Shown: positions 6,001 to 12,000 of the stretch, piece after piece | Numbering within the stretch: the first letter of the stretch is position 1 | How the letters are laid out: every line of letters begins with the position of its first letter | Origin: Thermodesulfovibrionales bacterium | GTDB taxonomy: Bacteria; Nitrospirota; Thermodesulfovibrionia; Thermodesulfovibrionales; UBA6898 | Length of the DNA stretch: 40,107 bases | Reading direction: 5' to 3' | NCBI GenBank assembly: GCA_044450345.1 | Contig: JBIOIY010000025.1 | Span: forward strand, 1 to 40,107 | Made by a program: the position numbers

Positions 6001-9000
6001 CGGCATTTTCAGGGCAGAAGGAGCATTTCTTCCAGTAGCACCCGCTCGATGCGCTGTAAGGGAGGATGAAACCAGGCGCGATATACTCATGAGTGCGAAA
6101 AGGCGTATAGTCAGGCGTGATATGCAGTTCTTCCTTAACCTGCGCCCCAAGTAATGAAAGGAGCCTGTATTCTCCGGGGCCTGCCACGAGGTGGTCGATG
6201 AGACCGCGGAACGGGTCCTTCCACGAAGGCCCCTGCATCCATGAGGTTACAAGCCCGCCTCCGATAATGATGACGGCGTCCGGCAGTATGCGCTTTACGT
6301 GTCCGATCATCGAAAAGGCGGTCAGGGCCTGGCTGAGATAATTCAGAGAAAACCCGACTACCGACGGCTGAGACTCTTCGAAGAGCCCTGAGAGTCGGTC
6401 CCTGAAATAGGGGAAAAAGGGGTTTTCCTCAGGATGCTCTGCGGCATAGATGAGGTCGGCGCTTCTCACAGGCGAAAGCCCTGTCTGCTGAAAATCCGCA
6501 AGCCCGGCCCTTGCGCCGTTTGCTCCGGAAGAGAATTCGAGGGCGCGGTTAAGGTCTTTGACCGCCCTTTTATACCTGTCAAATGAGCGATAGGTCTGAG
6601 GGTCCCTTAGTGACGAAAGATTACGGGGGAGATGTCGAATTGACCGTCTGGTCCATGTGTCGAGTCTCTCGTAAGGGCGCGAAAAAACAGACCCCGACAG
6701 GTACATGAGACCTTCAATATTCGCGTCGACCGCCCTGTGCCGTATACCATGGGTCTTCAGCGCCCCTGAGAGTTTTGCCGGTCCCGCAGGAGGCTCGGAG
6801 GGTTTTGCAACGGGAGGATAGATGAGAAGCATGATTAAGAGATGACCCTGTAGACCTTGTCTGTCTCTTTTAAGCCTGCAATGATGCCCGACGCCTCTTT
6901 CGGCTCCAGGCGGTCGGTATCCGTGCAGGACAGAAGATCGCGGAGTCCGTCGAAGGCCGCCTTTGTGTTGAGGTCATCGTCCATTTCCCTTATGAAAATC
7001 TCTTTTACCTTGTCCGCCATCGTCTTATCCGGCGGTGAAGTCCCGGCCCTTCTCCTGATTGCCCTGATCTTGTTTTTGAAATCCCGGAGGACGGAAACAG
7101 CCGAATTCATACTTTTTCCGGAGTAATCGAGGTCTTTGCGATAATGGCCGTAGACGAGGAAGAACCTGATCTCTTCGGGACTATACCCCTCTTTCAGGAG
7201 GGTCTCGGCGTATACGATGTTCCCTATGCTCTTCGACATCTTACGGCCGTCTACATGAAGGTGGTAACAGTGGAGCCAGAACCTCGCCATCGGATAGGGC
7301 CGCACCGATTCGAGGATCGCCCGCGAATAGTCATGGTGCCTGACAAGATTGTCGATGCCCCCGCAGTATGCCGAGAGTGTCTCGTTGAAGAAACGCGCCA
7401 CCATGCTCGGGTCCTGTACGTTCCACGAAGGCCTTCCCATCCCGATTTCCGTTTCCAGACAGTCGGCATCGCCATGCCCGCCTCCATGCCAGAGGATGAA
7501 GTCGCCGCGGTTCCATCTCATGCCCGGATACGTGTCCTTGTGGAACCTTTTCTTCCTGGAAGGCCATTGAGCCATATCAAGGCCGTAAAGCCTTCCGAAA
7601 CCCGGAAACTTCTTAGGGTCGAAATAGATGTTCCCTCTATACCGGTAGGCGACGCCCCGCACAAGAAGTTGTTTGATTATGTCTGCGGCCTGTCCTACAT
7701 TATCCGAGGCCCTCGGCAGGAAATCAGGTATCTTCATCTTCAGGAGTTTCATCTCCCTTATGAATACCCTTATGTTTTTATCGGCAAGACGTTTGACGGT
7801 GGTCTTTCTCTTTGCCGCCTCTTCTATGGCCTTGTCCTCGATGTCCGTGACGGTCATCCCTCTTTTTACCGTATGCCCTGAAAATTCGAGGTACCGCACA
7901 AGCACGTCTTCAAATAAAAAAGTCCTGAAGTTGCCGATGTGGGACCTCTGGTAGACGGATGGCCCGCACGTGAATATGGTGATGACCTTCTTGTTTACCG
8001 GCCTGAAGGTCTCGATCGTTTTTCCGTATGTATTGAAAAGTCTCAGCATGTCACACTATAGTAACAGTCTCATAATTAATCCACCGTGAGTTTTTCCCAG
8101 TGCCCTCTCTGAAACCGCCACGTCATAAGCATGCCCTGAAAGGCCATGGATGCGATCATGGCGATCCAGACGCCTGTTGCTCCGTAGCCCGCTGCAAGCG
8201 CAAGATAATAAGCCAGCGGCAGTCTGATGAACCACATCGCCGCAATTATCACCCACATCGTCCCTCTCGTGTCTCCCGCCCCCTGGAGGCCGCCTCCAAG
8301 GATTGTACTCAATGCCATAAAGGGCTCCGAAAGCATGTTGAACCGCAGATAGCGGGCCGTTTCCGCGAGGACGGCATGATCTTTCGTGAGCAGCCAGGCG
8401 AACTGTTCGGCCCATATGAATATGGGGACCGCCATGAGGCTTATGAGGAGCACGCCGAACTTGGCGATCCTCCATCCCGCCTGCGCCGCCCGGTCCGGAC
8501 GGCCCGCCCCCAGGTTCTGACCGACCAGCACCGCGGCGGCCATATTAAGGGCGAAGGCCGGCAGGTAGATGACCGCCTCGATCCTGAGGCCGTTGGTAAT
8601 AGAGGCAAGGGCCGGTATGCTCGCCGGCCCGAGGCGGCCGAGGATATTATACAGGACGATTGTGCCTGCATTCCATGCGATCTGGAGCATTGCGGCAGGC
8701 CAACCGAGTCTTACGATCTTGAGGACCGTATCGGCCGAGACGGTCCAGGGACGGGCGTAAAGAGAACGCCACCATCCGACTGTAAAAAGCCATAGGTTGA
8801 TGGCCATCCCGGCTGTAATCGAAGCCGCGGTAGAGACCGCGATGCCGACGTACCCCATCGCAGGGAATGGAAATAGACCGAAGACGAGCACGAAATCGCC
8901 CGCCACATTGATAAGACCCACAATGAACATCGTGAGCAAGGGTTTCTTTACTTCCCCGGATGCCCTGAAAACTGCGTTGGAAATTATAAGGATGTAGTTT

Positions 9001-12000
9001 GGTCCGAGGGAGAGGGCAAAGATCCTGAGAAATCTTTCGGCCATCTCCCTGGTTCCGGCCGGAAAGCCGGCGAAGGCGATTATCTCCCTGTAAAAGATGA
9101 AGCAGCCGCAGGTGACCCCGGCGGCAACGGCGACACTGAAAAGGAGTGACTGCCTCGCAATTTCAAGGGCCCTTTTTTGGTCGCCCGAGCCGACGGCCCT
9201 CGAAACGAGCGCCAGCGTGCCGATGCTGATGGCGTTTGCGACGATCGTGATGAGGAAATAGAACAGGCTGACGAAGCCGACAGCGGCCTGCACCTCGGGG
9301 CCTATGAACCCGGCGACAAAGACATCGGTAAAGCCGACGAAGAAGGAGAAGACCATAGTGAGGAACATCGGCCAGGAGATGCGCCAGATGTTCTCGGACA
9401 GGTTCCCTATCGTAAGGTTGTTAAGAGGGGCTTTGTCCGCCAAAGAGATCTCCTTTTGGTAATGAAATTAAATATTATTACTTCGGCAATCATATGAAGT
9501 TTTTCGACGCCGTCATTCCGGCTTGCCTGCCTGCCGGTAGGCAGGTCCGGAATCTTTCTGTGTCTTAATGTACTATGATAACGCACTTCCGTTCAATTGG
9601 GAATGCGAAAGGTAGCTTGGGTCCGGGGCAAAACCCCGATTTGTACATCACTCTAAACTAGAATTTATTGACGCGGAGCTTCACCCCGCACCCGAGGCGC
9701 TTTTCTGGGATGCGCCAGAAAAGTGCCCAAAAGAACGCACCCCAGCTAAAATTTTTCACGGTTCGATTGTTCGTCCTCGGTAGATTTTAGGAACTCGTCC
9801 CTGACGGGACTCAAACAACCTAAAATCTTTCACCCTCCGGGCGACAACTCTCACCTAAATTTTAGAAGGGGCCCCAATGGAACCCAAAGCCATCCATAAC
9901 GCCGTTTCTTTGTATCTTGAGTTCCCCTTCGAAAATTTCAGATCTGCGACCGAGGACGCGCGTTAAAAATTTTGGGCTGTCTGAGCGAAGCGAGTTCCCA
10001 AAATTTAGCGCTGCCGACCGAGCAGATCGTTAAGAAATTTTCGTTGGGGCGCTCTTCTTTACGTTAGCTTTCTTGGAGCGAACAAGAAAGGTAACTGGGG
10101 TGCGGGGCGACGCCCCGTACTCGATAAATATTTTTTTAACCCTCGTCGTCGTTTCCGGGCAATCTTGGTCGATGACGTTGTATGGTAAAATATAGAAAAA
10201 GAATTACATCTGAAGGGAATTAATGCGGAATGGGAAACGGCGGGTCCAAACCAGGAGAGGAACTTGAGGTACAAGAGAGGCAGAAGACCGAAAGTCCCCG
10301 TCTTTATAAGGTCTTCCTGCTGAACGACGATTATACGACGATGGACTTTGTCGTGCATGTGCTCGAAAGCGTCTTTCGGAAGAGCCCGGTAGAGGCGACG
10401 AGGATAATGCTGCACGTCCACAAAAAAGGCAGAGGGTTGGCCGGCGTGTTCACCAGGGAAATCGCCGAGACTAAGATCGCCGAGGTGCACAGCTTGGCGC
10501 GGGACCACGAGTACCCGCTCAGATGTGAAATGGAGAGAGAATGATTAACAAGGAATTTGAACTGACGATAGAGGCCATGATAAGGGACGCAAAGACGCGG
10601 AGTCATGAATACCTGACCCTTGAGCATGTGCTCTATGCGGTGCTTCATGACGAATTCGGCGCCGAGATTATTGCTGCGTGCGGCGGGGACGTGTCCGAGC
10701 TGAAATTATCCATCGATAAGTATCTGGACGAAAGCGTGCCTAAGACAGAAGAGGGTGCGGAGCTATATCCCCAGCCGACCGTCGCTTTCCAGAAGGTATT
10801 TCAGAGGGCCCTCCTTCACGGGGAGTCCGCATCGAAGGAAGAGACCGATGCGGGCGACATCCTTGCATCCCTGCTGCTCGAGGAAGATTCCCATGCGGTA
10901 TATCTACTCCATTCACAGGGCGTCAGGCGTATCGATGTACTGAATTATATCTCTCACGGGATAGAGAGGGTACCGCAGGACGGCGAGGAGAGTCAGGATG
11001 ATGCGGACTCTCTGCGTCCCGAGGCCGAGCAGCAGGGGAAAAAGGACCCTCTCGAGAGTTTTACCGTGGAGCTGACCGCAAAGGCGGCACGCGGCGAGAT
11101 CGATCCCCTCGTCGGACGCAAGGCCGAGATCGAAAGGACGATCCAGGTCCTGTCGAGAAGGAAAAAGAACAACGTCATCTTCGTGGGTGAGCCCGGGGTG
11201 GGGAAGACGGCGATTGTGGAAGGCCTTGCACAGAGGATACATGAAGGCAAGGTCCCTGCGTCGCTTATAAAGACGCAGATATTTTCGCTGGACATGGGCG
11301 CGCTCCTGGCGGGCACTAAATACCGGGGTGATTTCGAGGCACGGCTGAAATCTGCGATCAGCCGGCTTGAGAAGATCCCGGGCGCGATCCTCTTTATCGA
11401 CGAGATCCACACGGTCGTGGGAGCGGGCGCCACGAGCGGCGGGTCCATGGACGCCTCGAACATCCTCAAGCCGGTGCTGAATTCAGGCAGGCTGCGCTGC
11501 ATCGGCGCAAGCACCTATGAGGAGTACAAGAATTATTTCGAGAAAGACAGGGCGCTTTCGAGGCGTTTCCAGAAGGTCGAGATACAGGAGCCTACGATAA
11601 AGGAAACGGTCGAGATCCTCGGGGGACTCAGGCAGCATTATGAGGCCTTCCACGGGGTCAAATTCACCGAAGGCGCGTTGAAGGCGGCCGGGGAGCTTTC
11701 GGCGAAATATATAAACGACAAATTTCTGCCCGACAAGGCGATAGATGTGATCGATGAGGCGGGGGCGGTGCAAAAACTCTCTCCGTCTTCCAAGAACAAA
11801 AGGGTCGTCGGGACGAAGGAGATCGAGAAGATCGTTGCGAAGATGGCGAGGATACCTTCCAGGACAGTATCGACCTCCGACGTGGAAAAGCTCAGATACC
11901 TCGAAGATGAACTCAAGAAAGCTGTATTCGGCCAGGACAGCGCACTACACTCCCTCTCGGGTGCGATAAAGAGAAACCGCGCCGGTCTCGGCGCGCCTGA

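Follow-up and report, generated by a model that had tools for sequence, protein, structure and literature searches.

A candidate amino-acid ligase from a conserved family of cysteinyl-tRNA synthetase paralogues with a putatively rebuilt metal pocket and no anticodon domain

Why does a bacterium with a housekeeping cysteinyl-tRNA synthetase (CysRS) encode a second CysRS-like protein directly behind a MATE-family transporter? In the window, by which we mean the whole 40,107-nucleotide stretch of DNA analysed, three genes follow one another on the minus strand: a MATE-family transporter of 455 amino acids (8076..9443), the first gene of what is likely an operon; 26 nt downstream of it, the 404-amino-acid CysRS paralogue (6835..8049); and, after a further 2 nt, a 518-amino-acid radical-SAM protein (5276..6832) that carries PF04055, weakly resembles B12-binding types and falls below all NCBIfam cut-offs. 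As an earlier note on this DNA had reported, the paralogue scored below the cut-offs for both canonical CysRS (TIGR00435, 278.8 against 340 bits) and the mycothiol enzyme MshC (TIGR03447, 168.9 against 485.1 bits); PF23493 was absent from it. The housekeeping CysRS, a CysE-CysS fusion of 708 amino acids encoded elsewhere in the genome (C12), reached 583.6 bits with TIGR00435 and, at 303.5 bits, outscored the paralogue even with the MshC model. Read directly, the paralogue has the HIGH and KMSKS motifs and class Ia fold, with HIGN at residues 37-40 (7930..7941) in the ATP site and the KMSKS loop at residues 270-274 (7228..7242). These ATP motifs were invariant in a family alignment of 158 rows at 43-87% identity (159 before removal of P0254, admitted by a loose motif), with H37 and N40 in all rows, K270 in 154 and K273 in 158. 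The analysis supports reading the 404-residue protein as an additional CysRS-like protein beside the housekeeping one, its ATP motifs intact. A pseudogene or decayed duplicate was ruled out by this conservation, together with zero internal stops here and across 21 carriers.

The selectivity of CysRS stems from its zinc-thiolate site, which in the paralogue appears to have been altered. Cys28 (7966..7968), the predicted first metal ligand and equivalent of E. coli C28, is retained in 158/158 rows. The earlier note had described an Asp in place of a zinc-binding Cys and HHDY(S/T) in place of HHENE, and both are borne out: WNVQD (residues 209-213; 7411..7425) replaces WHIEC through H206N, E208Q and C209D, and RHHDYS (residues 237-242; 7324..7341) replaces PHHENE through P233R, E236D, N237Y and loss of E238. 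In the family, W, N, Q and D of the first motif occur in 157, 156, 157 and 158 of 158 rows, and R, H, H, D and Y of the second in all 158, the last four being wholly or, for Y, partly built in by the selection motif HHD[YF]; canonical rows carry W, H, E and C of WHIEC in 111/111 cases, having been picked by that motif. Residue 242 is T, N or S in 66, 46 and 35 rows; the top five residues together account for 157 of 158 rows, and E is not one of them. The zinc ligands C28, C209, H234 and E238, which the earlier note had listed, are given in PMC7563103; in our alignment to E. coli CysRS (L163, 461 aa) they correspond to C28, D213, H238 and S242, so that the paralogue has C, D, H and S. Judged by these alignments, the metal pocket seems to have been rebuilt, and the combination of H206N, E208Q, C209D and P233R with no E238 appeared in no other protein compared. 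A natural Cys/Asp/His-ligand variant of this kind would be a direct test of how the CysRS zinc site sets specificity.

In E. coli CysRS, C209D strongly lowers translation activity, and both C209D and C28/209D, which lose translation, still make persulfide (PMC10655014 and PMC5660078). The paralogue might be a natural C209D version serving as a dedicated cysteine-persulfide synthase, which dropped aminoacylation, kept the PLP-dependent side activity and supplies antioxidant defence or the repair of Fe-S clusters with sulfane sulfur. Equivalents of K73, K266 and K269 are present in 158, 154 and 158 of 158 rows, and NifS/NifU or SufBD genes lie at most three genes away in 7/80 GTDB loci. However, these three lysines serve ATP chemistry anyway; K76, whose loss cuts activity, is Lys in only 27/158 family rows (also only 32/111 canonical rows) and Glu in the 404-residue protein; and the reaction needs neither the invariant HxGN nor the newly fixed pocket and loop, which makes this reading highly improbable.

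A predicted model (pLDDT 88) matched CysRS structures 8QHP and 1U0B at a TM-score of 0.87 and MshC (3C8Z) at 0.80 in Foldseek. It comprises a Rossmann fold, CP domain, stem-contact fold and helical bundle. The earlier claim that the protein stops before the C-terminal anticodon-binding helices held only in part: four predicted helices of the bundle are kept within residues 311-400, where V399 aligns with E. coli V390, but the protein ends about five residues past E. coli position 390 and lacks the domain 403-461, the anticodon-contacting C-terminal domain according to PMC12684709. A tail of at least 45 residues was found in 0/158 family rows and in 111/111 canonical rows, the latter picked at 440 aa or more. 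In place of the CysRS GAR loop lies a basic CP loop (residues 162-188; 7486..7566; WP..KRRFHKDTYPG..WN.GDF.LWH), in which the Arg is retained and the Gly lost; it holds about 15 family-specific, nearly invariant residues, although the model falls below pLDDT 50 at residues 172-177. The family lacks G166, H224, Q241 and mostly N351 (Asp is commonest there, in 85/159 family rows, against Asn in 91/111 canonical rows), H224 and N351 being tRNA-contact positions. Absence of H224, Asp as the main residue at 351 and HHxYS are all found at the aligned positions of MshC too.

These features bear on whether the family still acts on tRNA, either by charging some special or mismatched tRNA via its acceptor arm alone, as in CysRS*, or by aminoacylating a modified tRNA base, as in GluQ-RS. 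Loss of the anticodon domain is compatible with charging: CysRS* of Desulfobacterales lacks it, has a changed CP1 motif and can still charge tRNA, and an engineered mimic was active in vivo (PMC5389517). The family, too, has a loop rich in Lys and Arg and has not lost R168, HYR or the helical bundle; three sister proteins without the domain (P0138, P0144, P0134) keep all four zinc ligands; and a stand-alone gene would fit a tRNA substrate. Against this stand the changed tRNA-side positions and the genomic context. Across 60 stretches (59 loci and the window) ARAGORN, which may miss 8/4 tRNAs, found no tRNA type recurring beside the gene; no SelB-like gene was seen among annotated neighbours of family loci, nor, within the same limit of ARAGORN, selC* or selB* neighbours at the loci examined; and no Rfam model matched at gathering level in window positions 4000-12000. 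SelA occurs in 20/21 carriers and 57/59 non-carriers; being near-universal (77/80 genomes), it leaves the presence of the ligase unexplained, and we dropped the selenium link as uninformative. A dedicated exporter also suits a small molecule better. We regard a non-canonical tRNA enzyme as rather unlikely. As the earlier note proposed, the family is most likely tRNA-independent, because it has no anticodon domain, its tRNA-side positions have changed as in MshC, and no tRNA or selB recurs beside it.

How does this protein relate to known CysRS-like enzymes? Canonical CysS (TIGR00435, PF01406; PDB 1LI5/1U0B, 8QHP) is about 30% identical and has C28, H234, H235, W205, D229, T68, HIGH, KMSKS and the helical bundle in common with the family, which differs, beyond the pocket changes, missing domain, new CP loop and sub-cut-off score, in K185H, the loss of H224 and an accessory, patchy occurrence. 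MshC, a cysteine:GlcN-Ins ligase (TIGR03447; PDB 3C8Z, 8HFM) compared here by PDB alignment only, is equal in size and domain set, with a CysRS core lacking the anticodon domain, HH(E/D)YS, loss of H224, a DLD-type helix start and a second copy beside a true CysRS. In contrast to the family's WNVQD and RHHDY, MshC retains WHVEC, with its second zinc cysteine, and P233 (it reads PHHEYS); the family, moreover, occurs in anaerobes, has another CP loop and came with no matching sugar-amine pathway that we could find. CysRS*, as described in PMC5389517, is likewise a second copy without the anticodon domain, with an altered CP1 motif and partly overlapping hosts, but it lies behind selC* and selB*, whereas the family does not, and its PTVS-type CP1 motif gives way to WP.KKR at what we infer to be the same position. 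Unnamed anticodon-less CysRS proteins of 405-413 aa (P0134, P0138, P0144 and P0149, three of them named from Micrarchaeota/Iainarchaeota) group with the family at an SH-aLRT of 98. All keep C209 and three keep E238, and they lack the family loop and RHHDY, although P0149 already reads WNVQC.

These truncated CysRS were the nearest kin found, with MshC outside the trees (one from FastTree, the other a quick 43-row run under LG+G4, with neither bootstrap nor rooted testing of the clade), in which the family appears as one clade. Since such intermediates survive, any change of specificity may be retraceable from loss of the anticodon domain through WNVQC to Asp213 and RHHDY. At least 581 genome stretches in GTDB match the family, whose usual annotation is 'cysteinyl-tRNA synthetase' or else 'class I tRNA ligase family protein'; the ESM Atlas returned generic CysRS/MshC clusters only, and none of 24 longer hits, all 28-33% identical, was a fused form of the family. 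The papers seen describe MshC and CysRS* as CysRS paralogues, and a literature search in which subscription journals were mostly out of reach and supplements excluded found no description of this family. The family is not MshC, CysRS or CysRS*, and constitutes a third, compact and highly conserved CysRS paralogue family beside the two described.

Turning to the exporter, the MATE protein scored 222.6 bits with TIGR00797 (cut-off 147.4), has two stretches of PF01554 and is closest to the solved structures of Aq128 and PfMATE; its D40, E289, E361 and D391 are invariant across 46 linked orthologues. Among the top 80 GTDB loci, 50 have a MATE gene next to the ligase (49/78 of those with at least 600 nt upstream), in line with the 20/29 noted previously. 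Carriers of the ligase number 21 among 301 genomes of the phylum, all within one order (21/90). There, 18/21 carriers and 1/59 non-carriers have the MATE orthologue, against 13/21 and 35/59 for the control gene Aat, in a profile of related genomes with a single control gene and 59 of the order's 69 non-carriers. A second class, with the ligase in 9/49 genomes, gave 3/9 carriers and 1/40 non-carriers, and no ligase adjoined a sister MATE group 37-41% identical. Within this order the link between MATE and ligase is therefore real, beyond adjacency. The earlier statement that the product is exported may hold for this branch but is overstated family-wide: three of the 21 carriers lack the MATE, and among distant members it is adjacent in only 2/80 loci (adjacency alone, with unlinked copies outside the count), so export would belong to one branch.

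Which second substrate might be involved? BshA and BshC fell below cut-off in 5/5 carriers tested, and a PIG-L deacetylase rose above it in 3/5 with none in a 99%-complete carrier; by these models, no bacillithiol- or mycothiol-type pathway was found in these carriers. No upstream motif was shared (best palindrome count 3/149, shuffles giving 2-3). The recurrent neighbours, counted without background control, are redox proteins: SOD, rubrerythrin, peroxiredoxin, thioredoxin, ferritin, OsmC and NifU/NifS. Such neighbours would suit aminoacylation of a thiol or amine on a protein or carrier protein, for example in redox-protein modification or repair, and aaRS paralogues include aa:CP ligases (PMC9437257) as well as EpmA/GenX, which lysinylates an elongation factor (PMC4721953). 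We think this unlikely, as no single target gene was conserved beside the ligase across 160 loci and the MATE link is left unexplained. In distant lineages the ligase stands alone with no pathway neighbours, which would also fit an adenylate formed for no dedicated acceptor, in proofreading, salvage, Ap4A formation (a non-translational aaRS activity according to PMC4721953) or as an amino-acid/ATP sensor controlling the MATE; the nearly invariant CP-loop residues argue instead for a defined second substrate and make this very unlikely.

We favour, at a probability of about one half, a tRNA-independent, MshC-like adenylating amino-acid ligase of putatively separate origin from MshC, which itself lay outside the trees. 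Because the anticodon reader is lost and the metal pocket seems rebuilt, the protein's probable task is to couple a small molecule to cysteine or an amino acid like it. To judge from the invariant HxGN, KMSK, G29, T68, W209 and D233, an alpha-amino acid and ATP would be bound and converted to an aminoacyl-adenylate. The side chain would be picked by a metal (probably zinc) that Cys28, Asp213 and His238 bind and whose fourth site is open; the odds are about even between cysteine or a near thiol/selenol analogue and a harder O/N ligand, for instance serine or oxidised cysteine. The earlier proposal of a new specificity goes further than these data: MshC, a cysteine ligase, also reads HHEYS, and C209D alone is seen in five full-length sequences that pass the cysS cut-off, so cysteine is still a live candidate. 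The acyl group would pass to an amine or hydroxyl, probably on an anion, which Arg237 and the invariant basic CP loop would hold; a common cellular acceptor is suggested because no dedicated biosynthetic genes accompany the enzyme. In the Nitrospirota/Desulfobacterota branch, the associated MATE may export the conjugate or a derivative, which would help in tracing the product to the medium. The redox-stress neighbours, for which no background was drawn, point tentatively to protection or detoxification. More tentatively, the re-tuned fold might use a different amino acid or an undescribed acceptor to give anaerobes of sediments, from several phyla, a protective conjugate of a small molecule, a possible counterpart of mycothiol and bacillithiol exported through its own MATE in one branch; were the product a thiol conjugate, it could be considered as a redox metabolite of anaerobes without bacillithiol ligase. 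The lack of a visible acceptor pathway or fused form, the rarity of the MATE beside distant members, and the basic loop retained with R168, HYR and helical bundle, run against the preferred ligase reading.

Finally, the earlier caution about the downstream radical-SAM gene was justified. Its presence tracks that of the ligase in this order (14/21 carriers against 2/59 non-carriers), and an orthologue was found in 4 of the 80 best GTDB loci. In the second class, the link was not replicated (1/9 carriers against 23/40 non-carriers), which, with its unconserved neighbours, rules it out as an obligatory pathway member: the gene is a local neighbour.

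The 404-aa CysRS-like protein (6835-8049, minus strand) lies in a co-directional three-gene run, 26 nt behind a MATE transporter gene on the same strand (8076-9443), just as the earlier note had placed it, with a radical-SAM gene (5276-6832, minus strand) beginning 2 nt past it. The protein matches PF01406 in a domain profile search, and its scores do fall below the cut-offs for both cysS (278.8 vs 340) and MshC, the cysteine:GlcN-Ins ligase of mycothiol synthesis (168.9 vs 485.1). Its predicted model (pLDDT 88) has a TM of 0.87 to CysRS and 0.80 to MshC. It is indeed a second CysRS-like copy: the housekeeping CysRS, which reads WHIEC and HHENE and has a full C-terminus, is a separate gene on contig C12, where it is fused to serine acetyltransferase in a 708-aa CysE-CysS protein (locus L161, G000:C12:49177-51309). 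Open frames of ~700-720 aa at cysS recur in the window's class, and PALP (cysteine synthase)-CysS fusions were also found. The zinc ligands given in the earlier note (C28, C209, H234, E238) are those named in PMC7563103. Aligned to E. coli CysRS, the window protein reads C, D, H and S at these positions, confirming that Cys28 is kept and that Asp stands in place of Cys209. The reported C-terminal truncation is less extensive: the domain at 403-461, which contacts the anticodon according to PMC12684709, is absent, but the helical bundle is retained and the protein ends just past E. coli residue 390.

Among the 120 matches listed, homologues were at least 61% identical and 401-426 aa long. Two family-specific peptide patterns matched at least 581 confirmed GTDB stretches, the best 80 of which come from Nitrospirota, Desulfobacterota/Syntrophales-type genomes and one Chloroflexota; with a distant member as query, 287 metagenome stretches were retrieved and 80 kept. 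In an alignment of 158 members (selected by HHD[YF], one false row removed), C28, H37, N40, T68, K73, D213 and D233 are present in every row, as are R237, H238, H239, D240, Y241, H260 and K273, which include the selection motif, and 147 rows carry T, N or S at position 242. Compared with 111 canonical rows, the family has the fixed replacements H206N, E208Q, C209D, P233R, N237Y and K185H, has lost H224, E238 and Q241, and carries a new CP loop of ~15 nearly invariant residues, with R168 kept. It forms a single clade (SH-aLRT 100) in a quick, unrooted 43-row tree without bootstrap or MshC, and four anticodon-less proteins with C209 group with it (SH-aLRT 98, same tree); FastTree on 103 rows agrees. 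One of these truncated sisters, a group newly recognised here, already reads WNVQC. On such unrooted, MshC-free trees the simplest order would have the anticodon domain disappear before the pocket was remodelled. With the four sisters included, ten anticodon-less CysRS of 405-430 aa outside the family (aligned rows P0134, P0138, P0144, P0149, P0178, P0203, P0204, P0211, P0212 and P0270), some of them DPANN archaeal, fall in at least three separate places in the tree, and P0204 lacks C28 too. The ligase gene is accessory, being found in 21/301 genomes of the phylum, every one of them in the window's order (90 genomes), and in 9/49 genomes of a second class; at least six of the 21 carriers have a separate canonical CysRS among the matches listed.

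The family has lost H224 and G166 and usually has Asp at N351, changes that it shares with MshC and with other truncated forms; we take H224 and N351 to have tRNA-contact roles. No recurrent tRNA type was found beside the gene in 60 stretches scanned, nor any selB-like neighbour among those examined; SelA presence was uninformative on a selenium link. Together with the missing anticodon domain, these features favour the tRNA independence proposed earlier. Against it stand the basic family loop and the precedent of CysRS*, the selC*/selB*-linked second copy of Desulfobacterales, which lacks the anticodon domain yet can serve a special tRNA (PMC5389517). The family is neither CysRS nor CysRS*, and we consider action on a tRNA unlikely.

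The claim of a new specificity is weakened by two new observations. MshC, which activates cysteine (PMC4721953 and PMC2922099), reads HHEYS where the family reads HHDYS, so the missing E238 is consistent with a cysteine substrate. Asp also occupies position 209 (WHIED) in five proteins of full length that score past the cysS cut-off (P0155, P0225, P0232, P0255 and P0267), predicted natural CysRS that contrast with engineered E. coli C209D, whose translation activity is strongly lowered (PMC10655014 and PMC5660078), nearly to nothing. That strong effect argues against cysteine, as does the combination of C209D, H206N, E208Q, P233R and E238 loss, seen in the family alone among the proteins compared. 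Since a metal with one open site could still be held by Cys28, Asp213 and His238, and the evidence pulls both ways, cysteine-like and non-thiol substrates have about equal odds. The engineered mutant keeps persulfide synthesis, according to the same papers, but K76 is variable in the family and a dedicated role in that activity seems very improbable.

In the likeliest reading, whose probability we put at roughly 0.5, the protein adenylates an alpha-amino acid chosen by a metal site of Cys, Asp and His. The acyl group would then pass to a small acceptor, common in cells and probably an anion, that Arg237 and the new loop bind, with export of the product in one branch. The protein is thus proposed to work as MshC does, yet at 168.9 against 485.1 it is not a member of that family. 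Action on a protein or carrier is improbable, and an adenylate-only or sensing role slightly more so. Neither BshA nor BshC turned up in five carriers tested, three of which have a PIG-L deacetylase above cut-off. MshC and CysRS* are the only CysRS paralogues named in the accessible part of a 2022 review (PMC9437257). No published description of the family was found in the literature searched, most subscription papers lying outside its reach, nor in the available parts of PMC11580382, PMC4519929 and PMC13449415. The family is real, a variant among ligases that are tRNA-synthetase paralogues, and directly testable.

Export, as proposed earlier, holds for one branch at most. MATE adjoins the ligase in 50 of the best 80 of at least 581 GTDB loci but in only 2 of 80 distant metagenome loci (80 kept of 287). 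New here is the genome-wide dependence of MATE on the ligase: among 80 genomes of the window's order, which comprise every carrier (21) and 59 of its 69 non-carriers, a MATE orthologue occurs in 18/21 carriers (beside the ligase in 16, on a different contig in 2) vs 1/59 non-carriers, whereas the control gene aat occurs in 13/21 vs 35/59. The second class has a close orthologue in 3/9 carriers vs 1/40 non-carriers. Ten of the 32 GTDB genomes scored as MATE-non-adjacent have an orthologue at ≥53% identity (one adjacent after all, one at a contig end, eight unlinked). Because MATE rarely persists without the ligase and the ligase often stands without MATE, the transporter appears to be an accessory exporter of one branch, on counts that kinship inflates and with a single control gene. 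Divergent from the MATE operon lies what we take to be clpS-clpA-aat of the N-end rule (10230-13491, named from translations), the source of the control gene. The intergenic stretch upstream of MATE (9510-10125) holds repeats that look like a REP/MITE-type element, with no match in Rfam. One is a ~50-nt palindromic unit (9512-9562), of which the genome has ~9 more copies; the other, a ~450-nt element whose long arms are inverted (9674-9723/10068-10117), occurs whole or partial on ~8 contigs.

The radical-SAM gene was rejected as a required partner, also a new result. Its orthologue occurs in 4/80 loci, and although it tracks the ligase across the window's order (14/21 carriers vs 2/59 non-carriers), the second class shows no such pattern (1/9 vs 23/40). 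Its family (in the window and at locus L186) is 52-69% conserved across two phyla and reaches the cut-off of no model; in genome G341 it directly precedes a different MATE. Elsewhere the ligase stands alone amid changing genes, and no fusion partner appeared. Redox and iron genes recur nearby, in counts clustered by kin and without a background frequency: SOD directly upstream (4 loci), rubrerythrin with peroxiredoxin (2), divergent thioredoxin (7), NifU (5) and SufBD (2), and in distant loci ferritin (4), DinB (5), an OsmC/hydrolase cluster (10) and hemerythrin (3). By eye, a TA.AAT-like box ~7-10 nt upstream of the start codon and the lack of a ribosome-binding site suggest leaderless transcripts in eight loci (L035, L042, L043, L047, L062, L037, L021 and L053). 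In three loci (L007, L018 and L044) the ligase is preceded by asparagine synthetase A, another paralogue of the tRNA synthetases, and two Pfam-less proteins of 231 and 355 aa.
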